NCBI GenBank assembly: GCA_051599415.1
Contig: AP039707.1
Location: 186,001-250,000, forward strand
Source: Savitreella phatthalungensis
Lineage: Eukaryota
Direction: 5' to 3'
DNA length: 64,000 nt
Part shown: positions 1 to 42,669 of the stretch, piece by piece
Layout: each line of letters begins with the position of its first letter
How positions within the stretch are numbered: the first letter of the stretch is position 1
Translations under genes and position numbers: made by a program
Notes under the pieces: generated by a model
Database searches by the model: none
The model's input: only the letters and a program-made list of their open reading frames with translations
What the model was told of the DNA's origin: nothing

Positions 1-2006
1 GCCAAATGAAGAGAGAAAGGGACCTGGCTGGCACTGAACCAATAGAACGTTATAGCTGAAGCGCAGACCTCAATGCTCGATCGTGGATGCTTAGCCGAGC
101 TCCTGGTCGGTTTGCGTGTCACGAATGAGCGCAAGCACGAGTAACAAGTCGTAGCTGATCGGCTGTAGCTACTATGAGGAGTGAGGGTGGTGCGCTGGCT
201 TGTGATGAGCACGGGTCCACTAGATCCCGTTTGACTGGTCAAGCCAGCGGAAAAGAATCCTGCGCGCGAGAGAGAGAAGGGTATGACCTCCAGTGAAGTG
301 TCCTGTCAAGTCGATCCTTCCAAGCACAGAGAGTGTGAATGGAGCGCTATGCTTGGGCTTGTTCAGAAGCACTCGGTACACAGACTACAAATCCTTCCGA
401 GCGGTTTACCCGGCCGGCGCCTGCTCTCTACAGAAGATATGACGACCGTATGTTACCTTGATGTCAAAAGTTCCCACTTCACCCGGATCACCAGAGAGAT
501 CCAGGGGTTATAGACTTTAATGCTTTTGAGGGTAGTGGAATCGTGATGATTGGCACATGGAATTCCTCTCAAGACGGCTAATGAATTGTCCTACTGTGTC
601 CATGTACAGTTGACGCCATTACACGCACACGGCCACCAGATACCGTGAAGGAACATAAACTTCATCAGCTTCCCCATCTTGAGGGTATGCTGAAGCACTA
701 GCGACAGCTATCAGTATCCATTCTCAGTGAATAGATAACTCTATGATATTGACCGCAGGCCAGGTGAGCTGGAAAGCAGGAGAGCATTTAAGTTAGCGGG
801 TAGGTGGTGATCGAGTGGTATGGTTGACAGGATGCACGCGCACACAGATAAGATGATGATTGGCTAATTTCTATGCTTCAATCAGGATCTGCTAACCCGG
901 GCTAAATTTTAAAAAATATCCAATAAAATACACGTGCTGTTGACGCACATAGATCCATGGATCTAAGAGACAAGAAACAGGACGGAAGGCATACGCCGGA
1001 CGTCAGAGTAGAGTGTGTTGAGATGATGAGATGTATGCACAGAAGGGAGATGATCCCCCTGAGCAAGATTGTCGGTTTAGTACGATGCTTTTGAGTTATT
1101 TTTCACAGGGAGAGGATGTCACGACTCAATGAATTGATGGATTCAGAACGGAAATGTGTATGGTACACGTGCAGAAATCATGGTCAAATGATGCCATCAA
1201 TAGCTCAGCAATGATATACTCATCGATAATGCACACGCACACATACAGATGACATAACGTAGACTACTCTCAGGGGCAGAACTCAAGGAGGCATCCTTGA
1301 GCCTCCATAGTCATACACATACCTGCAGGCAACAATGGATTCAGAAGAAGAAAGTGCGCGTGTGAGACTGTACGTCTCGCCGTAGCAAGATAAGCTTCAT
1401 GAAGTGACCAGGCGAGCCCCAGAGTACGTCACTGTAGCTGGCACATTCCAGTAAATCAGACCATTCCGGCAGGACGTCAATCTGCTTGCCCCTTATCCTC
1501 ATCTGATGACTTAGGCTTGCACTAGCCGCTGATGATGATGCTGACGATGGAATTGACAAGTCGAGAGGCCAAATCACCGCCATCATTGTTCGACATGCGG
1601 TTGAACCACTCTGCTTCGGTACAATACTGCGTGCATCGGACATGCAACAGTCCTTGGTCGTGCATTCACTCGAGTCGAGTCCCAGTCGAGTGGTCCGGTT
1701 CAATGCTCATGAATGCATGATCTGATTACTTGGGTCGATATCTTGCATCATTGACAATTCGACAATTCAATTCCAGAGCTCGACCTCATCCGACAAACAC
1801 GTGCAGCTCTAGCCTGACCAAAATCCGTGATCGACCTTCATCACGTGTTAAGGCAACCAGATTCAGGGCTGTATACTGTCATGACGGCTTCTATGCACAG
1901 GGTCATCATGAGCAAGTCGCGTAGCCCTGTACAATCCTCACACTTCTAGAGGTACAGCAGCCATCTGTTCGGAGAGACCTACAGCCTTGTTTGTCGAGGC
2001 ACTCAG

Positions 2007-17851: not shown

Positions 17852-19558
17852 ATGAAGGCAGTCATCGTTGGATGTGGTGTAGGTGGTGTAGCGACCGCAG
17901 CTAGGCTTGCACGTGCAGGCATCCAGGTCATCGTGCTCGAGAAGAACGACTTCAACGGTGGTAGATGCTCTCTCCTCTATCAAGATGGCTATCGCTTCGA
18001 TCGCGGACCCTCATTCTACCTCATGCCCAAGACTTTCGAGGAGACTTTCGATGACCTAGGCGAGGACATTCACGAGTGGATCGACCTCCGCAAGTGTCCT
18101 ACAAACTACATTGTACATTATCACGATGGCAAGACGTTAGAGCTCTCGACAGATTTGACACGGATGCGGGAGCAGCTAGAGCGCTTCGAGCCAGGCAGCT
18201 TTGAGCACTACCTCCGCTTCATGAAGGAGGCGCATATTCACTACGACATGAGCGTCAACATGGTGCTCAAGAACAATTTTGAAACCATCTGGCAACTACT
18301 CACCCTCAACAACCTGGTCAAGGCATTCAAGCTTCATGTCCTCAACAAGGTCTACAGCAGAGCTTGCAAGTACTTCCGCAGCGATCGGTTACGTCGTGCA
18401 TTCACATTCCAGTCGATGTACATGGGCATGTCTCCGTTCGATGCACCTGCCACGTACAATCTGCTGCAGTACACGGAACTCGCCGAGGGTATCTGGTACC
18501 CGATCGGCGGATTCAATACCGTTGTTCAGTCATTAGAGAAAATTGCGAAGAAGCACGGCGCTGACTTCCGATACAATTCAGAGGTCAAACGAATCGTGAC
18601 TGAAGGCAAAGTGACCAAAGGCTGTGAGCTGACGGACGGTACTTTCGTGGAGGCAGATATCGTGATCTGTAATGCGGATCTCTTGTACGCTTACAATGAG
18701 CTTCTACCAGAGTCGTCCTATGGAAAAAGTCTAGACAAGAAGAACCTCACTTCAAGCTCAATCAGCTTCTACTGGGGTCTTGATCGAAAGGTCGAAGGTC
18801 TGAATGCACACAACATCTTCCTCGCAGAACATTACCGCGAGTCCTTCGATGACATCTTTAAGAAGCTATCACTACCAAAGGACCCGTCCTTCTATGTCAA
18901 CGTTCCGTCCCGTATCGACAAGACAGCCGCACCTGACGGCAAGGACGCCGTTGTCGTGCTTGTGCCCGTCGGCTGGATCTCTGACGCGAAGGGACCACAA
19001 GATTGGCCGCTTATGATCGCGCGGGCACGTGCATTTGTGCTCGAGACGTTATCGCGTCAGCTCGGGATTGAGGACTTTGGGTCGCTGATCACGACAGAGC
19101 GTGTTTCTACGCCGCATGACTGGGCAGCAGATTTCAACTTGTACAAGGGCGCCATCCTCGGCCTCTCTCACGACATTCTCCAGGTGCTGTGGTTCCGACC
19201 GGGGACAAAGCACGCAACCTTGAAGAATCTCTACTTTGTCGGAGCTTCCACGCAGCCAGGGACCGGCGTGCCAATCGTCATGTGCGGTGCCAAGCTCACG
19301 GCCACCCAGATCCTGCGCGACTACAAGGTCGCCGCACCACCATCCAGGAGTGCGGTCGAGAGTGGTCAGGTCGCCAGTCCGAACGAGAAGCATCTCCCTC
19401 CACCCCAGCTCTCCGCCCTCGACATCCTCCGCGAGCGACAATCGACCTTAGCCAACTTCTTCTTCCTGCTCGTCATCCTTGCATTCATCACTAGCGCTTC
19501 ACTTCTCCCGCGTTTTGTAGACCTTCCTCAAGTGGGATTTCTCCCGCGCCTAAAGTAG
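17852..19558 (+). CDS. crtI: Phytoene desaturase (CrtI/Al-1/CarB)
   Basis: FAD motif VIVGCGVGG, GGRCS, RFDRGPS, FQSMYMGMSPFDAPATY.LLQYTE, GASTQPGTGVP, and the fungal C-terminal hydrophobic anchor. Confidence 0.95.
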   Translation: MKAVIVGCGVGGVATAARLARAGIQVIVLEKNDFNGGRCSLLYQDGYRFDRGPSFYLMPKTFEETFDDLGEDIHEWIDLRKCPTNYIVHYHDGKTLELSTDLTRMREQLERFEPGSFEHYLRFMKEAHIHYDMSVNMVLKNNFETIWQLLTLNNLVKAFKLHVLNKVYSRACKYFRSDRLRRAFTFQSMYMGMSPFDAPATYNLLQYTELAEGIWYPIGGFNTVVQSLEKIAKKHGADFRYNSEVKRIVTEGKVTKGCELTDGTFVEADIVICNADLLYAYNELLPESSYGKSLDKKNLTSSSISFYWGLDRKVEGLNAHNIFLAEHYRESFDDIFKKLSLPKDPSFYVNVPSRIDKTAAPDGKDAVVVLVPVGWISDAKGPQDWPLMIARARAFVLETLSRQLGIEDFGSLITTERVSTPHDWAADFNLYKGAILGLSHDILQVLWFRPGTKHATLKNLYFVGASTQPGTGVPIVMCGAKLTATQILRDYKVAAPPSRSAVESGQVASPNEKHLPPPQLSALDILRERQSTLANFFFLLVILAFITSASLLPRFVDLPQVGFLPRLK

Positions 19559-24349: not shown

Positions 24350-25693
24350 TCATTTTGGGAAAAGTGCTGCAAGGACGTGGTTAGCAGCACGCTCGCCGGA
24401 GATGTAGGCGCCATGGGCTGTTCCAATCGCGTTTCCGCGCACGTCTGCATGCTCGCCTGCGAACCACATGAAATCGTCGATACACGTGTTAGCAAGGAGC
24501 GTGCAGTCAGCAGGAGTATCGAGCTGGCCTACAGGCGCATGGGAGTATGAGCCTCTTGCGAATGGATCATCCAACCAGTTAGTCATCTCTAGTCCCGTGA
24601 TGGATTCGCCGGAGTATCCTGGCATGCGTTCCAGGTACGGCTGCACAAAGGCCTTCCGCTCTGCGTCTGTCATCTTACGCAGCTTGGCGGCCAGGTCGTC
24701 GGCAGAATACAGGAGCAATCCTGATCTTACTGGAATCAGGTCGATCAACGGGTCTTGACAGAAGCTGAAAATGTCGCTGTCGAGCGGATAACGTGATACC
24801 TGTGCTTGCGGAGCGCCGGACTCCCAGAATCTTCGAGAGACCTGGATGAACATCTTCTCAGCCGTGCCAAAGCCTATTCTCTCGATGGCGCCACGCACAG
24901 CCTCCGGGGCATCGAACTCAATACTTCCATGCTTAAGCACGCCCAGAGGCACAGCAAGGATGACAGCATCGCAGAGAACCGTGCCCGCTGCGTTATCGGC
25001 GACGTTGTGATAATGCACGGCACCGCGCTCGATCTTGTGCACGACGCAATTATGCTGCACTTGAGTGTCAGCTGCAACTGCCTCGAGGATTCGCGAGTAG
25101 CCATTCCAGACGAGTGGTTCGTCGCCAGGCCATTTTTCCTCGACGATATAGTTGCGGAGGCTCTGCTTCGAGATGTCAGTCGCCGTGATACTGGTGTAGA
25201 AGTTGATCAGGCGGTGCGCCAGGCGCTTCTCGAGTGTCGACAGCTTCTCGTTGGCGTCAATCTGATTGCGACAAAAAGAACCAAAATCCGCATCCTTGTC
25301 AATTGTATCGTGCTGCTCACGCGACAGCTCGACAGCCTGTGCGCTAAGCCCAAGGACGAATTCCATGACATGTGTAGACTCCTTGGCTCGCAGCCACCGC
25401 TTCTGTTCGGGATCATACAGCGCAGCAGCCTGAGTTTCACGCAAGTCTGCGTCTACACGCTCCGCGATTGGGGTCAGTGGGTTGTCCTCTGTGCCGTGAA
25501 TCCAGCTCGCGCCGTGGTCACTGCCGGTGGAGGGACATGTGTAGATCCGCCCACCGACTCGATCTCGTGCTTCAAGGACGACGATGCGCATCATCTCACG
25601 CAATTTTGAAGCGATGACTCGAGCGCGCAGAACGGCCGCAGCACGCAGACCGGCCATGCCAGCGCCTACAATGACCACTGTCCTGACCTGCAT
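24350..25693 (-). CDS. Flavin-containing amine oxidase (polyamine oxidase/FMS1-like)
   Basis: VIVGAGMAGL, VLEARDRVGGRI, GASWIHG, AVPLGVLK, WLDDPFARGSYS, FAGEH, GTAHGAYISGERAA. Confidence 0.9.
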   Translation of the reverse strand: MQVRTVVIVGAGMAGLRAAAVLRARVIASKLREMMRIVVLEARDRVGGRIYTCPSTGSDHGASWIHGTEDNPLTPIAERVDADLRETQAAALYDPEQKRWLRAKESTHVMEFVLGLSAQAVELSREQHDTIDKDADFGSFCRNQIDANEKLSTLEKRLAHRLINFYTSITATDISKQSLRNYIVEEKWPGDEPLVWNGYSRILEAVAADTQVQHNCVVHKIERGAVHYHNVADNAAGTVLCDAVILAVPLGVLKHGSIEFDAPEAVRGAIERIGFGTAEKMFIQVSRRFWESGAPQAQVSRYPLDSDIFSFCQDPLIDLIPVRSGLLLYSADDLAAKLRKMTDAERKAFVQPYLERMPGYSGESITGLEMTNWLDDPFARGSYSHAPVGQLDTPADCTLLANTCIDDFMWFAGEHADVRGNAIGTAHGAYISGERAANHVLAALFPK

Positions 25694-35470: not shown

Positions 35471-37420
35471 GTGGTGTTCACAGGTGCGGTTGGCGAGTTA
35501 GATATGCCAGAGACGGATAGAATCAGCTTCGGGACACAGCCCCTAAAGCCGTAGATTCAGCCGCGATTGGCGATTGAAGTGGCCGCTGGGAGGCTTGCGC
35601 ACGGACCTCTGAGCTTTTTCGCCAGACTAAAGATGAATGACCTGACTCTGTCGCGCCAAGAGCCTCGGGTCTTCAAATACAGTGCATCAGTCGCGTCAGA
35701 AAAGAGATGCAATGAGAGTGTGTATCGCACACAGGTTATGCGCTCGTATGTCTTCACCTTTGTATCTCACTCTGTGAGCTTATGTTCAAATGTAGCAGAG
35801 GATGAAGGAGGGCGCGTCTCTGGCCCAGGCGCTTCGTGTCGCCTAACAGGTCTGCAGGTTAGAGGTTTGAGGTTTCCATTTGCTAGCTGGATTTGAGTTG
35901 AAAGGTGAAAGAATTCATACACCAAAGGGTCTGATTCATACACTACAGGGAATCCGCTTCTCCGAGGCTATACACAGTGAAAGATGGCTATCAATTTTAG
36001 CTGCATGCATGACTATGACTGCAGCCAGCTCTACTTGGAGTAATTTGTCCTTGAATGAGCCTCTCAATCGAATTCTATTGGACTGCATAGATTTGAATTA
36101 GATTGAATTTAATCGAGTTAGAATTGGAATTCAAGGAGTGAATTGAACAACACAGATATACTTCGAGTAATGAGAACCAGCTGGACGTTCACCTCCTCCG
36201 GTTCATGGATGATTGAATTAGTGTATCCAATCAAAATTTAGCTACGCATCGCCTCACCTCCCCCATTATTTCCAGACTGGTGGCGCATCCCAGAGTTCAA
36301 ATTGATTGCACCTGGATGCACGTTCACGTTTGGAATTGACCCACATATCCGTGTCAACGCACAGAAGTAGGCCCAGTCCAAGTGTGCAAAGGCCCGTGCA
36401 CATCAAAGCGGCTGCATCCATGCATGCAACGAAGTTATTGAAGCAAAGCCCTTAAGGGTGATTTCCACTAGGCCAATTAACAAGATTAATTTGGGAGATC
36501 CATGGGACTGGCCTCAGTGTGGAACAAGCAAGATCCATATATAGACATCACATAGATGATATCTAAGTCATATGCGTACATGCTTCAGTTCAATCCTCTT
36601 GTTCCTCTACAAAGTAATACTGTACACATAGTTCCATGATTTATTCTGGACTTCAGGCTGATGAAGGTCAAATGCACCGCTCGTCTCAATGTTCTGCTTT
36701 GAACACGTTGACACAATCAAGTGGATCATCCTTCTTCAGCCTGTCCACGGAGCGGAGTTCCATACCCTTTCGAATTATTCGTCCCAACAGCGGTTCTAAC
36801 ACAGGTCAAATCGAAAAATTCTCAGAAAAAAGCTCCGGATGAGCGTATGATAAGGCCCATGTCGTCTGCCTCGGACAGCACTAACCATTCACCCTCTTTT
36901 TGAATCAGCTACAGTGTGAGCGGTGCCTGCGCCCCACCCTGTACACTTCTCCAAGTATGAGCTGATGGAGATCGTCAAGACGGTATCAGCTTATCTCGGT
37001 GAGCTTGAAGCGAGATACATTTCTGACTTCCACCTTATCTTTTTGAACTTGGACTATGGGTGCATGTCTGACTGCCGAAGCATGCGGATAGGCGCAGTAT
37101 AAGAAGGCTCGCCTGTTCATCTACTTTTGCAGGTGCGATATCGATTCTCTGGCGGATCAGTCAATGTGTCGCGCCATCACGTGAAGCTCGTGCTCAGAAA
37201 TAAGTCCAGTCTCCGCAGATTCGTACATACACGCCCACACATACGTACACTGGAAGTGTATGTGTGTCCGAGCGCGTACCATGTGGCTTGCAGGAATAGC
37301 CAACTGAATAGTGCTACCAAGTGCCATGTACCCACACAAAGTCATCCCACGAAGCCACTACGCAAGTTCTATTGCTTCAAACGTTTCGTAATCACATCGA
37401 CATAGTCACATGTCCAATCA

Positions 37421-37941
37421 TTAGTATGAGGTCCTATGCAGCATGACTTCAAGCGGCGGACCTGCTGGCTTAGACTTGACTGACATGGTAAGCATGCACC
37501 ACTCTACTTCCGAGACATTAGACACAATCGAAAGACTTTGATGCGTGCTCGTGCGTCTGATGCATCGGAAGGACAGTACCCACGCTTTCGATTAATTACA
37601 CATTTCTAACAATCTATCGACTTACCACACCGATGCAGAGCTCTTTCGGAATCCGACAGAACTCTCGTGTACGCTGTGCAAACTCGATAGTAACTTGCGT
37701 TCTCCTGTATTGGGTGAGCTTTCGATATTCTTCTTCCAGATGAAAGATGTGAGTTGACTAGTTGACACGATTCTTTTAGAGTTTCGTTGGAATCATTGAT
37801 AAACTCGGTTGGTGGTATGATAGTGATGGAAGACATATCTAGACACTTCAGCCGCGGGCTAGGTTTTCCTGATAGACAAGCGAAGACGAGTATCAGGGCG
37901 ACTCGAATAATTGTCCTGACGATCGACACAGCTGATATCAT
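37421..37941 (-). CDS. Candidate small secreted Cys-containing protein (possibly 2 exons)
   Basis: ATG ORF with a signal-peptide-like start (IIRVALILVFACLSG). A GTAAGT donor at 37625 and an AAG acceptor at 37585 would extend it by about 55 codons to TAA at 37421. Confidence 0.35.
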
Positions 37942-38718
37942 TCATATTGATTTCGCACGTAAGAGCAATATTTCAGGCAGTGGCGCCGAGCTTCGATATT
38001 CCAGGTATTCGGTCTAGCTCCGAATGACGCTCAGGCTTATCCACACACGCCTCGATATTTCAAGAGCGTCAAGAATACCTTCGATGTGGGTAGCGCCCCC
38101 TCGGAGGGCCACGACTTAGGACTCGTACGTTTTTGCTCGGGCAGAATGCAAGACTCCGCACGTCGTCGCCGTCCCAAACCGAGCTAAGAAGAAGCATGTA
38201 CGTCTTGACTGGACCCCCTTGTGATTAGGCGATAGTCTCGCCCTGCTACAATCACAGGATCTGGTCAGAGTCTTCTTAGCGATTGTGCATGCGACTTGAG
38301 TTCCCTTGCATTCGAGATTGAATCAAATGCAGTCTGAGTCAGGTGAGAATTGGTAATAACATGAAGTCGTGTGGATCTTCTGCGGAGCCGAGCCAATGCG
38401 ATGCCCGCGGGTGCAAGTGCTGACCTGGGGTTGAGTCTATCTGAAACCCCACGTATAATGTATGATCTGCATCTTCGTAGCTAGATTGCCTTGTCCTGAT
38501 GAAATTGGCCGAGCTTGACATCATGTGAGCCAGTTCACACAGGCACTTTTGCAAACGAGCCGATACTCATACACGTTCGACTAGACACAAGACGCCTACC
38601 TTCCTATCGCGGCGCAAGCTGCGTATCAGCATCAGCATTATAAGAGACGGTACTATCGAGCGCGCGCAGTCTCTAGGTTACGTTTGATGATTTGAAGGCC
38701 TCAGACACGATCCTTCCC

Positions 38719-39223
38719 ATGCTCGACTTTCTTAGTCGCTGGACTGCTGCTGTTTGCTCAACCGGCGCAACGTTGAGCAACACCCCATTGGTGTTTGAGC
38801 CCGAGATGGAGGACATAACAATTCTGGTATGCAGGTGCTGTGGTGGTATGTGAGCATGCATCGTCGCGTTCCCAGCAGTCGAGGCTGACTCTGCAGCGCA
38901 TCTTTCGCAGTCCGCTGCAATAATGTCCAAGGCCTTCACCGGTCGGTACGGCAGGGCAGTGCTTGTACGCACGACGTCGAATGTCTCCGTCACTGGCCGG
39001 TCGGAGCGAGTATTGTCGACAGGATCGCATGTCGTCGGTGATATTGCTTGTCGTGGGTGCGACACCATCATCGGCTGGAAGTAGTGAGCTACCCGATCAA
39101 GCAGCATGCATTGCCTTACTGACGTGTAGCATGGCGTGTCCGGCTAGTCAAGTGTACAAACAGGACAAGTTCATCCTCGAGGAGCACTGCATTCGTAAAC
39201 TCAATTCGAGTTGGCTCGAATAA
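38719..39223 (+). CDS. Yippee/Moh1-family zinc-binding protein, 3 exons
   Basis: Exons 38719-38845, 38897-39083 and 39130-39223. Introns read GTATGT..GCTGAC..CAG and GTGAGC..TACTGAC..TAG. Spliced product: CRCCGAHL...MSKAFTGRYGRA...TGSHVVGDIACRGCDTIIGWKY...SQVYKQDKFILE. Confidence 0.88.
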
Positions 39224-39909
39224 AGTATGACTGCGAGACTCGCGAGTGGTATCGAAAATCGGCGGAGGCAGACAGCCCACTGGAATTTCTGTGGCATCGA
39301 ACATCGAGTATCATGGTGATGTTGACGGCCGATTGTCACTGCTAAAGTGTACAAGTCAACTGAACGAGTGGCTTCCAACACCATGGCCACCCTGATGATG
39401 GCTAGTCATTTGTACACCTTTTTCCAAGTACTGTAACGAGCGTCTACATCAATGGCTGGCCCTGAAGCTTTCTTCTGTGCAAGCGATTTTGCATGACACT
39501 TCCACGGGCCTGCTCACATTAGATTTCCTGTTTGTAACTTAACTGTACTCTTTCTATTTACCACATTCTAGATCGAAATTTTCACTGACGCCAGATGGGA
39601 ACAATCACTCCAGGATAATAGTCAGTCAGAGTCAGGGTCAGGCGCATGGTCCTTTGCTGAGGTGGATCCTAGCTAAACCCGCGCAACCAGCACCTCACAG
39701 TGGTAACGCAACGGCAAGTTCTGACTCCACTACCGGTCAGCACAGTCAGACATAGTCGCTCCAACGCGCTGAATCTCACGACTCAAGGACGCGGATTCTG
39801 ATTCGCTCGGCTGAAGGAGCGCACGACAGTTCGTATTGTAGAACATTTCAGATCGAAGCGACAGATTTTACACTGGTCCAAGGCGACACGTTCAAGCTGA
39901 AGTATAAGA

Positions 39910-41128
39910 ATGTCTCATCAATTTTACAACCAATTACTCATGTCGAATCCTGAGGGTGCCTCGCGCACCTCCTCGACTTCGAAGAAGACCAAGGCGCCTT
40001 CCAGTCGGTCAGGCTCTGGCCGTGGGCTCGCCAAGCCGGCCAAGCGTGCAGGACGCTCAGCCAGAAAGCAAACCCAGGACGCTGATGAACAAGATGAGGA
40101 CGTCTTCGTGACGCATCAATCCATCGTTTGCCAAACAGCTTCTGGATCAAAGTTCTTCTACCGCTCGGCGCCCGACGCCGGCGGCCAGTGCTGGGGGTGA
40201 GGTCGCATCATCGGCAAAGACCCATGCCTCGTCGTTCAAGATGAGCGACGTTGGCAGGGCCGCGAACGTACCGATGTCACTGCGTGAGAGGCATGACATC
40301 ATGGGAAGTCGCGCAACATCTGCAATACTGAAAGCCCCAAGCCGAGAGGTCTACGGCTTCGAACAGCAGCAACAAGAGACAATTCGTGGCTGGTTCGCTG
40401 CAGCGCTCAAGCTCCGCGTGCCTGCTGCTGGCGCAATTCAGGATACTCTCGTCGTCCGGGAAGAAGGCACAGTCACAGTGTGCGGCGCAATTGTAGTACA
40501 CGGTGGTGTATCGACGCTCTACCTCATGCCGGCCACAGCCTTTGAGCCTGATTCTGCGATCCTGTCGTCGGCGCTTGCGTGCCCTAAATTGACAAGCATA
40601 TCCCTGCGCTCAGACGACATGCACGCCTATTTTGGCACGCCAGGCGTTCTTCAACGGGCGGAAGAGGACACAGCCTCTGTCTCGAGCAGCGAATCCGACT
40701 ACGGAAGCGTCTCGACGACGGCAACGACTCAGCTTCACTCGCCTGTATTGGCGGCCTACAATTCGCCCGTCAAGCGTGCATTGAGAGCGAGTGTGAACGA
40801 TGGCGACTCTGATGACACGCCTGGCGAGTCTTTGGCCGCGGTAGGCCCAGGTAGCTATTCGACGCAAGGTCTTGCTCTGAAACAGCGTCTGGTGGCACTG
40901 CTCGATCTTGCCATCGACTGTCTAGCATGCTCCAGTCTGTGCTTGTTCATTGACCGACGCGGTCTGGACGCCAAGCAGCTCGCCTCACTGGTCCGCGATA
41001 TGTCTTGGGTCGGGTTCAGCTCAACGCTGCCGGCAAAAGTTCTGCACCGATTGCCACTCGCAAGAATCACAGATCCGAGCATGACTACGATCGACGAGGC
41101 ATTTGTCCCTCTTTTCATGGAGCTTTAG
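39910..41128 (+). CDS. OAZ1: Ornithine decarboxylase antizyme, expressed through a +1 programmed ribosomal frameshift (ORF1 39910-40200; ORF2 read from 40199)
   Basis: ORF1 ends KFFYRSAPDAGGQCWG-UGA. The +1 frame is open from 40199 (EVASS...) to 41128 and carries the antizyme core LKQRLVALLDLAIDCLACSSLCLFIDR...LVRDMSWVGF. The fused product is about 405 aa. Confidence 0.9.
40192..40259 (+). promoter_or_regulatory. Antizyme +1 frameshift site (UGG GGG UGA G) and downstream stem-loop
   Basis: Stop at 40198-40200. Hairpin at 40221-40259: CCC-A-TGCC-T-CGTCGTTCA-(AGA)-TGAGCGACG-TT-GGCA-GGG. Confidence 0.75.
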
Positions 41129-41199
41129 CGCCACATTCTCGTAGGAATTCATTCATTCTCTGTAATTTAAGTTGCGATCTCGACCTATGTCTATGATGC

Positions 41200-42669
41200 C
41201 TAGGCAATGTAGGTCGAAGCCGATACGTTGCCAGACTTTGCCGTCCACTTGACGTGGATGTCCTGGCCCTCGGGATAGCGCTTGGAAGCGAACTGGGGAA
41301 GGATACGGAAGGTGTGGGCACCGAAGTAGTCGCGCTGGGCCTGGAGCAGGTTGGCCGGGAGCTGCTCGGTCGTGTAGCCGTCGTAGAACGACAAGGCAGT
41401 CGACAAGGCTGGTGCGGGAATGCCCATGAGAGCAGCCTGCGAGACAATACGACGCCATCCGGGCTGCGCCTTCTCGATTGCATTCTTGAAGAAGTCATCG
41501 AAAAGGAGATTCTCAAGCTCCGGGTTCTTCTTGAAGGCAGAGGTGATGTCGCCCAAGAACACAGAGCGAATAATGCAGCCACCGCGCCACATCAAAGCGA
41601 TGCCGCCGAAGTTGAGCTTCCAGTTGTACTCCTTAGCTGCGCCACGCATGAGCATGAAGCCTTGTGCATACGAGATGATCTTGGAGGCGTATAGAGCCTG
41701 CTCGAGGTCATCGATGAGCTGCTTCTTGTCTCCCTCGAACTTGGGCGTGATGGGCACCTTGCTCAGGGCCTTCGAGGCGCGCACACGCTCGTCGCGGATG
41801 GCCGACAGGCAGCGAGCGAAAACAGCCTCGCCGATGAGAGTGACCGGCAGGCCAAGGTCCAGAGCATTGATAGCGGTCCACTTGCCGGTACCCTTCTGGC
41901 CTGCGGAGTCCATAATCTTGTCGACGATTGGCGTTCCGTCGTCCTGGTCCTTGAAGCGAAGGATATCACGGGTGATCTCGATTAGGAACGAGTCGAGAAT
42001 GCCCTTATTCCAGCTCTCGAAAACGTCTGCAATCTCATCGCAGGACATACCAATCGACCGCATGATGGAGTATACCTCGCAGATCATTTGCATGTCACCG
42101 TACTCGATACCGTTGTGGGTCTGCTTGACATAGTGACCGGATCCCTGCTGACCGACCCAGTCGCAGCATGGCTCACCGTCTGCCTTGGCGCAGATGGACT
42201 GGAAAATGTCCTTCACATGTGGCCAGGCCGCGTCAGAGCCGCCGGGCATCATCGAGGGTCCGTAACGAGCACCCTCCTCGCCACCGGACACGCCGGATCC
42301 GATGAAGTAGAGACCCTGCTTCTCCAGGTAGTCAGCACGACGGTTTGAGTCAGGGTAGTGGGAGTTGCCGCCGTCAATGATGATATCACCCTTCTCGAGA
42401 TGCGGGATAATCATCTCGATAAAGTCGTCGACAGCGGATCCTGCCTTGACCAGGAGGACGACGCGACGTGGGGTCTTGAGGTTCTTGCAAAGTTCCTCGA
42501 TTGAGTGTGCACCGAAGATCTGGGTGTCCTTTGCCTCATTCTCCAGAAAGTGGTCGACCTTTGAGACGGTGCGGTTGAACACACCGACCTTGAAACCGTG
42601 GTCGTCCATGTTGAGAACGAGGTTCTGGCCCATAACGGCCAGACCAATGAGACCGATATCGCACGACAT
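41200..42669 (-). CDS. GND1: 6-phosphogluconate dehydrogenase, decarboxylating
   Basis: DIGLIGLAVMGQNL, GVSGGEEGARYGPS, HNGIEYGDMQ, QKGTGKWT, QAQRDYFGAHT. ATG at 42669. Confidence 0.98.
   Translation of the reverse strand: MSCDIGLIGLAVMGQNLVLNMDDHGFKVGVFNRTVSKVDHFLENEAKDTQIFGAHSIEELCKNLKTPRRVVLLVKAGSAVDDFIEMIIPHLEKGDIIIDGGNSHYPDSNRRADYLEKQGLYFIGSGVSGGEEGARYGPSMMPGGSDAAWPHVKDIFQSICAKADGEPCCDWVGQQGSGHYVKQTHNGIEYGDMQMICEVYSIMRSIGMSCDEIADVFESWNKGILDSFLIEITRDILRFKDQDDGTPIVDKIMDSAGQKGTGKWTAINALDLGLPVTLIGEAVFARCLSAIRDERVRASKALSKVPITPKFEGDKKQLIDDLEQALYASKIISYAQGFMLMRGAAKEYNWKLNFGGIALMWRGGCIIRSVFLGDITSAFKKNPELENLLFDDFFKNAIEKAQPGWRRIVSQAALMGIPAPALSTALSFYDGYTTEQLPANLLQAQRDYFGAHTFRILPQFASKRYPEGQDIHVKWTAKSGNVSASTYIA

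Follow-up and report, generated by a model that had tools for sequence, protein, structure and literature searches.

The stretch of DNA analyzed here, 64,000 nucleotides (nt) of Savitreella phatthalungensis contig AP039707.1 (positions 186,001 to 250,000), is called the window below, and coordinates are counted from its first base. On its plus strand lies a predicted gene for an ornithine decarboxylase (ODC) antizyme, composed of two partly overlapping open reading frames (ORFs). ORF1 (39910..40200, plus strand) has 96 codons followed by UGA and ends ...SAPDAGGQCWG; a second in-frame AUG at 39940 on the same strand lines up with the start Met of ORF1 in an alignment with five relatives. The antizyme body is encoded by ORF2, which lies in the +1 frame and, read after the shift, occupies 40199..41128 (plus strand; 309 codons and TAG). 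The +1 frame is free of stops from 40112, directly after the TGA at 40109-40111, up to the TAG at 41126-41128, and in a reading-frame scan both frames were open across the ORF1/ORF2 overlap (40112..40200, plus strand). Direct reading of positions 40189-40201 gives TGC TGG GGG TGA G. The putative shift site, UGG GGG UGA G (40192..40201, plus strand), includes a run of five Gs (40193-40197), with the P-site codon GGG at 40195-40197 and the stop codon at 40198-40200. Taking TGAG as a single step yields an uninterrupted product of 405 amino acids (P0001), ...QCWG-EVASSAK... An overlapping ORF2 in the +1 frame, with the UGA that ends ORF1 as the shift site, is the layout of antizyme genes; UGA is the ORF1 stop in about 97% of the known antizyme cases, as counted in PMC1874602.

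The training set of the codon model used to score the two ORFs consisted of 27 long uninterrupted ORFs, which together make up 63% of the window. From 39910 to 40197 the model favors the ORF1 frame (-4.046 per codon versus -4.205 and -4.185), and from 40199 to 41125 it favors the ORF2 frame (-4.003 versus -4.174 and -4.225). The public NCBI protein model consists of ORF2 only, as a 295-residue protein that begins at Met 40241, and its PF02100 domain is already precomputed. ORF1 and the frameshift are missing from that model while the domain itself is annotated there; the public gene model of the antizyme is truncated. An earlier note, made from the letters of this DNA, had described a hidden gene, which holds for ORF1 and the frameshift but not for ORF2, since the latter was already public from Met 40241 with its PF02100 domain.

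The same note had placed the antizyme core in the downstream frame, and the profile search, a check that the note itself had set, agrees: the product matches the Pfam family ODC_AZ (PF02100) with an E value of 1.6e-10 and a score of 41.3 bits (cut-off, 24.2) over residues 322-378 of P0001, that is, 40874-41044. The match spans only profile positions 41-95 of 114, compared with 12-114 in relatives that lack an insertion, because the insertion described below splits the domain. A full HMMER search over 1.84 billion representatives returned nine proteins at an E value of 0.001 or less, the best foreign one being 40% identical. Seven of the eight foreign relatives carry ODC_AZ, and the remaining one (P0007) is a repetitive false match. 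A word-indexed protein search with ORF2 returned only the window's own protein. When the profile of the family alignment was compared with the PDB, all four matches were antizyme 1 (E values of 0.003-0.007). The best Protein Atlas score, 0.89, is below the guide value of 0.9 and serves as a lead to antizyme clusters dominated by Ascomycota.

The AlphaFold model, built on a shallow alignment of eight rows, has a mean predicted local distance difference test (pLDDT) score of 61.6, with most of both halves of the domain at 86-96. The N-terminal half of the predicted antizyme fold is encoded at 40361..40543 (plus strand; ORF2 residues 55-115; pLDDT mostly 69-92), and the C-terminal half at 40862..41125 (plus strand; residues 222-309; pLDDT 90-96 over most blocks). 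Between them, at 40550..40861 on the same strand, an insertion of some 104 residues, rich in Ser, Thr, and Asp, is predicted to be disordered: pLDDT is below 50 across residues 118-221, except at residues 148 and 207. In the alignment of relatives, a comparable insertion occurs only in P0003 and is absent in P0005, P0009, and P0011. With VIA-align, the model (range 55..309) has human AZ1 in ranks 1-3 (4zgy_B, Z 8.4; 5bwa_B, Z 8.0; 4zgz_D, Z 7.9), with root-mean-square deviations (rmsd) of 3.4-3.9 over 90-106 residues (3.9 over 106 for 4zgy_B). Rat AZ1 ranks fifth (Z 6.8), and GNAT acetyltransferase folds reach Z scores of at most 6.8. Judged from sequence and predicted fold, the gene is identified as a fungal ODC antizyme, a brake on polyamine synthesis.

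A metagenome scan yielded 23 related loci, of which 14 have a readable ORF1 whose stop, in the +1 arrangement, falls within an open ORF2 frame; nine were dropped, either because introns interrupt the match (L008, L009, L012-L014, and L016) or because the locus is truncated or its ORF1 implausible (L006, L019, and L023). The sites in these relatives are UCC-UGA-G in 6 of 14 (L001-L005 and L011), GUU-UGA-G in 7 (L010, L015, L017, L018, and L020-L022), and CCC-UGA-G in 1 (L007). Since L018 is identical to L017, 13 loci were aligned with the window. The ungapped alignment of 63 columns has 10 invariant columns, which comprise TGAGG and five upstream Gs, and 7 further columns conserved at 90% or more. 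The ORF1 stop of the window falls in the same column as the ORF1 stops of all 13 relatives, and the residues that follow the shift, E-V, are common to both. The only columns that set the sequences apart are those of the P-site triplet, which is TCC in six relatives, GTT in six, CCC in one, and GGG in the window alone. On this alignment, the UGA of ORF1 can be assigned to the homologous position of antizyme shift sites. Together with the flip of frame preference at the site, the homology of the stop argues that the two-ORF pattern goes beyond chance. The layout proposed in the earlier note, two ORFs that a +1 shift at TGC TGG GGG TGA G would join, is borne out by the sequence, the 405-residue fusion, and the homologous stop column.

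Table 1 of Ivanov & Atkins 2007 (PMC1874602) gives seven P-site codons for natural antizymes. GGG is not among them, and the view of the earlier note that GGG lies outside the known set agrees with this table. Its assignment of GCG and CCG to filamentous ascomycetes does not: the 2007 paper, as available to us, gives GCG and CCG to yeasts related to Saccharomyces cerevisiae and UCC and CCC to filamentous ascomycetes. No GGG-UGA site was found in the antizyme literature covered, including the accessible portions of PMC4505036, PMC5009743, an eLife paper of 2026, and a 2025 preprint; the 2007 supplementary figure, the 2010 chapter, and RECODE were outside this search. Full-text literature that combines antizyme with the string GGGUGA contained only unrelated oligonucleotide or rRNA occurrences of the string, and no paper on antizyme frameshifting in Taphrinomycotina came up. 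These results suggest that GGG-UGA brings a P-site codon new to the catalogued antizyme sites into a known system. Of the 873 Gly codons in these 27 training ORFs, 91 are GGG, the least frequent of the Gly codons.

The last 15 codons of ORF1 (40153..40197, plus strand) encode a nascent-peptide-like element, FFYRSAPDAGGQCWG; its residues at -15 to -13 are aromatic, that at -2 is Trp, and a Gly pair lies between them. FFYRSAPDAGGQCWG matches FHYSSTxADGAQWRS of L001-L005 position by position and in the same register to the stop. Among the 35 ORF1 tails in supplement 2 of PMC4505036 (34 from Agaricomycetes and 1 from a Dacrymycete), the last 15 codons mostly read YYYSTTFSGGPGWRF, a consensus of our own reading, with the variants STA, GAQ, and WCF in some. 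The ORF1 tail of Ustilago maydis is given as QQQSTTLSTVVKWWS. In the basidiomycete antizyme system, the upstream part is described as working as a nascent-peptide stimulator (PMC4505036, in the portion available). The register and residues of the window tail identify it as a putative copy of the conserved, Dikarya-type C-terminal peptide of antizyme ORF1, held at a fixed distance from the stop.

Downstream of the stop, 20 unpaired bases are followed by a predicted stem-loop 1 (40221..40259, plus strand), which contains the Met codon at 40241-40243. Folded alone (40219-40261), it has a free energy of -24.5 kcal/mol and a z score of -5.24, and none of 200 shuffled sequences was as stable. Stem-loop 2 (40262..40312, plus strand) adjoins stem-loop 1 and has a 7-nt apical loop, GUGAGAG, at 40284-40290; its energy is -18.6 kcal/mol (z score of -2.87), matched by 1 of 200 shuffles. 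The centroid of the fold of 40195-40330 also consists of two adjacent hairpins. Single-sequence folding of the window gene predicts two adjacent stem-loops at +21 with GUGAGAG in the second loop, a candidate for a 3' stimulator of the Basidiomycota type. In mushroom-related fungi, two stem-loops without a spacer, the first beginning 17 nt past the stop and the second with a largely invariant loop, are described in the accessible text of PMC1874602; PMC4505036, likewise in the part available, gives a start 19 nt past the stop and extends the structure to Ustilaginomycotina and Pucciniomycotina. In supplement 3 of the latter paper, as read by eye, the complementary arms enclose GUGAGAG in Puccinia, Phakopsora, Uromyces, Melampsora, Ustilago, Sporobolomyces, and Coprinopsis, and GUGACAG in Leucosporidium, Microbotryum, and most Agaricomycetes. 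The arms of the window stem-loops differ in sequence from all of those above and would still pair, a pattern of the kind expected from covariation. In a search of 39700-41300 against Rfam, no family was at or near threshold, and the three rows returned were at chance level (E values of 0.54-8.8).

The heptamer GUGAGAG was seen near antizyme shift sites in three settings, namely the window gene, the ECERL box of the Pezizomycotina type, and the hairpin loops of Basidiomycota, and it sits in differing reading frames across them. In Pezizomycotina it forms part of a conserved box, GGAAGARUGUGAGAGRUCUUUYUGYGA, as reported in the portion of PMC1874602 available, and in L001-L005, L010, and L011 it is found about 110 nt past the ORF1 stop. 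The distribution of GUGAGAG suggests that it may be one ancient RNA-level motif common across Dikarya.

The antizyme gene is followed by a convergent 6-phosphogluconate dehydrogenase (6PGD) gene (41200-42669, minus strand), and the two genes end 71 bases apart; with a gap of this size, their 3' untranslated regions must overlap or be very short. In a 6PGD tree of 34 rows, a separate, long-branched clade (support 100/100) unites the window protein with three metagenome proteins that are 89-93% identical to it; this clade lies outside the sampled clades of Ascomycota (95/92) and Basidiomycota (94/98). The best named 6PGD match, from Cystobasidium minutum, is 78% identical, and the lineage lacks a close named relative among the proteins searched. 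A placement in Taphrinomycotina, supposed beforehand, was not confirmed by this tree. At a distance of 15-22 kb from the antizyme gene are two genes for flavin amine oxidases, which may be polyamine oxidases (17852-19558, plus strand, and 24350-25693, minus strand; Pfam Amino_oxidase, E values of 3e-30 and 9e-47, respectively). The window is gene-dense apart from about 3.2 kb at 35500-38750 without an ORF of at least 115 amino acids, where the GC content is 44-50%, lower than the mean of 53.5% for the window. This ORF-poor stretch is flanked by an SPT23/MGA2-like gene and a Yippee-like zinc-finger gene. The latter (38760-39223, plus strand) has introns at 38846-38896 (51 nt) and 39081-39129 (49 nt), which provided the local splice consensus used below; its exon 2 alone matches Pfam Yippee-Mis18 with an E value of 0.0017, below the cut-off.

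Our preferred interpretation is that the antizyme is probably made by a ribosomal +1 shift at GGG-UGA, with slippage on the G run, flanking stimulators, and polyamine feedback. We infer the frameshifting itself, as well as its direction, efficiency, and polyamine dependence. Ribosomes would initiate at the AUG at 39910 or 39940 and translate ORF1. When GGG (40195-40197) occupies the P site and UGA the A site, some of these ribosomes would enter the +1 frame and complete the 405-residue antizyme. Most likely, the peptidyl-tRNA-Gly would slip by +1 to GGU, keeping its first two base pairs, during slow termination at UGA-G, and the slip could be aided by the upstream nascent-peptide or mRNA element and by the two stem-loops that follow the 20 unpaired bases. 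The shifted fraction would be expected to rise with free polyamines, as in every studied antizyme, closing a negative-feedback loop on ODC. Slippage of tRNA-Trp by +1, with GGG occupying the A site, would lead to the protein also expected from a +1 slip at GGG; the two products being identical, the slipping tRNA is not identifiable from the product. In a cell-free Escherichia coli screen, homopolymeric P-site codons (AAA, UUU, and GGG) are described as the most slippery (bioRxiv 10.1101/2025.10.02.679949, available part). Models discussed in the accessible part of PMC12719033 hold that a scarce or near-cognate P-site tRNA favors +1 shifts, and the rarity of GGG among Gly codons fits such models. 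No tRNA gene was found within the window.

Several explanations would dispense with translational frameshifting altogether. The extra G of the run could be an assembly or sequencing error, homopolymer runs being prone to error, or it could be a recent inactivating mutation, in which case the true gene would be continuous (TGG GGT GAG) or decaying. Both read sets that cover the site come from a sample that may have supplied the assembly. Against this, the Logan contigs of runs X1 and X2 (word depth of 48 and 1462) agree with the assembly over 39700-41165 with no differences and no gaps, and both have five Gs; this was the test set in advance for the five-G run on which the earlier note relied. 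Their agreement rules out an assembler error but not a strain-specific mutation. In addition, the alignment puts the stop precisely where the relatives have their ORF1 stops, all 14 readable relatives need a +1 shift there, and ORF2 is intact with coding statistics present, and we consider error or decay very unlikely. Runs X3 and X4, of low depth and from another study, contain a variant about 98% identical over parts of ORF2 (40515-41193), with nine single-base differences, most of them in the disordered insertion and one turning the stop TAG into TAA; none of their contigs bridges the shift site, and one 44-nt contig ending at 40195 has five mismatches. A short intron starting with GTGAGG at 40197 would remove the stop and fuse ORF1 to the ORF2 frame. 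As the only reasonable donor across the site, GTGAGG would pass for a 5' splice site, and five AG acceptors at 40245, 40257, 40290, 40308, and 40341 would restore the frame, giving introns of 49-145 nt. However, a branch motif is missing from all five candidates, both as CTRAY and in the relaxed form YTNAY, whereas in each of the two real introns 1 kb upstream (51 and 49 nt) CTGAC stands 6-7 nt ahead of the 3' YAG. Splicing would moreover remove stem-loops that are placed as in published fungal antizyme mRNAs, the window is intron-poor (27 uninterrupted ORFs over 63% of it), and the relatives keep TGAGG in contexts that cannot be split, all of which makes an intron here hardly credible. It is also conceivable that no shift occurs, ORF1 being an upstream ORF and the 295-residue ORF2 product starting at its own AUG at 40241. 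An in-frame AUG does exist there, and the public model begins with it, but ribosomes would have to bypass five AUGs upstream of 40241 within 39700-40240, and AUG 40241 itself is buried in the -24.5 kcal/mol stem-loop 1. The ORF2 frame is open for 43 codons upstream of this AUG, the post-shift E-V and the TGAGG context are common to relatives with classic shift sites, and ORF1 has a conserved tail in the correct register; we judge independent initiation improbable, if somewhat less so than error or splicing. RNA polymerase slippage on the G run could produce a fraction of transcripts with four Gs that encode the fusion directly. Nothing but the presence of a homopolymer speaks for it, five Gs are short for productive transcriptional slippage, and it would account neither for the stop codon nor for the translational signals that flank it, which renders it the least probable of these explanations.

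A further alternative accepts recoding and reverses its direction. The peptidyl-tRNA-Gly on GGG 40195-40197 could slip by -2 to GGG 40193-40195, after which GGU (40196-40198) would be read as an extra Gly. With five Gs at 40193-40197, a -2 slip enters the same frame as a +1 slip and does so with perfect re-pairing; its product in the ORF2 frame, ...QCWG-G-EVASS..., has one Gly more than the +1 product. In S. cerevisiae, a mammalian antizyme cassette is reported to shift by -2 more than by +1 (PMC1874602, accessible text). On the other side, the natural antizyme shifts characterized in the portions of the literature available are all +1, and a -2 slip requires a larger movement of the mRNA; we regard it as unlikely, though a more serious contender than the explanations above. 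The GGG-to-GGU re-pairing on the G run put forward at the outset stands as a possible pairing, but it is one option among others, and the perfect -2 slip into the same frame had been overlooked. A broader version of the idea, about as doubtful, would be that the five Gs and UGA form a three-way slippery stop, with antizyme made mainly or partly by -2 shifting and polyamines tuning the partition among +1, -1, and -2. The -1 frame would give VRSHHRQRPMPRRSR and then a stop, 15 codons in all. The predicted tryptic junction peptides are SAPDAGGQCWGEVASSAK for +1 and SAPDAGGQCWGGEVASSAK for -2.

Returning to the +1 shift at GGG-UGA, several points weigh against it or against the evidence on which it stands. 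GGG was seen in one genome only, none of the 14 relatives with a readable site carrying it; these loci are more distant than the closest protein relatives (P0003, P0004/P0011, P0005, and P0009). After +1 re-pairing on GGU, a GGG reader would keep two G:C pairs and be mismatched at the wobble position, while re-pairing on the G run is perfect in both the -1 and the -2 directions. In human cells, within the human OAZ1 context, UUU is described as the sole replacement of the first codon that gave a +1 signal like the wild type (PMC7297798, portion available), implying that GGG is not generally a good antizyme P-site codon. The 3' structure comes from single-sequence folding, with published sequences compared by eye. 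X1 and X2 represent one sample, possibly the assembly's own source, and are hence not fully independent, and the sequencing-run listing contains no RNA run for the locus. Finally, the model resembles human AZ1 only moderately (Z 8.4; rmsd of 3.9; 106 residues), with a moderate margin over GNAT, and Foldseek returned nothing from the PDB at an E value of 0.001 or less.

Antizyme frameshifting is the textbook case of the ribosome acting as a sensor of a small molecule, and its shift sites have served in arguments on which P-site codons allow +1 shifting and whether they do so by occlusion, by re-pairing, or through scarce tRNAs. If true, a natural site of GGG-UGA within five Gs would add a different kind of P-site codon, a purine homopolymer and the rarest Gly codon in the window. 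It would be one more codon in a system already known for the diversity of its shift sites and would be more notable if the -2 shift or a polyamine-tuned partition proved true; the former would make this the first natural antizyme produced by -2 frameshifting. The site carries an inbuilt test of direction, as the +1 and -2 products are one glycine apart. Should GGG give no frameshifting, the gene would be a rare instance of an antizyme produced with no recoding, an informative finding in its own right. A similar 3' element with a GUGAGAG loop appears alongside different shift codons in distant fungi.

Compared with known systems, the window gene most closely recalls the Basidiomycota antizyme cassette in its signals. 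Both have a +1 overlap at UGA and an ORF1 tail marked by Gly-Gly, Trp, and three aromatic residues at -15 to -13. The two adjacent 3' stem-loops of the cassette, which begin about 17-20 nt past the stop and carry GUGAGAG or GUGACAG in the second loop, have a predicted counterpart in the window. They differ in the P site, which is UUU in Agaricomycetes, with U. maydis ORF1 ending in Ser, and GGG in the window; Table 1 of the 2007 paper gives UCC, UUU, and GUU for Basidiomycota (PMC1874602). The base after the stop is G in the window and C in the published basidiomycete sequences (PMC4505036, supplement 3), and stem-loop 1 is much longer in the window. The published Basidiomycota structure is backed by covariation, whereas that of the window is predicted from single-sequence folding. 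The antizyme protein itself appears closer to metagenomic and Ascomycota-type antizymes.

Related antizyme genes are found in early-diverging Pezizomycotina and in the metagenomic relatives (the L loci and the Sphaerosporella, Rhizina, Pyronema, and Drechslerella proteins). They share with the window the invariant TGAGG, the upstream G columns, the post-shift E-V, and a downstream GUGAGAG, and their ORF1 tail, FHYSST..GAQWRS, corresponds to that of the window. They differ in having UCC-, GUU-, or CCC-UGA, in carrying GUGAGAG about 110 nt downstream within the ECERL box, and in an N-terminal region of ORF2 that is of another type. Mammalian antizyme 1, which has the site UCC-UGA-U and a pseudoknot on its 3' side, is alike in family, fold, and frameshifting at the ORF1 stop and different in its P-site codon and 3' stimulators, the window gene having no Rfam match. 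Sites that combine a slippery run with a shifty stop, such as CCC-UGA, likewise place a homopolymeric P-site codon directly before a slowly decoded stop. A CCC-to-CCU slip can re-pair fully with an inosine-bearing tRNA-Pro; unlike it, GGG to GGU leaves a wobble mismatch, and the five Gs add perfect -1 and -2 options. CCC-UGA is itself listed as a natural antizyme site (PMC1874602). The predicted recoding cassette of the window gene is, by these likenesses, of the fungal type known from Basidiomycota and in part from Pezizomycotina.

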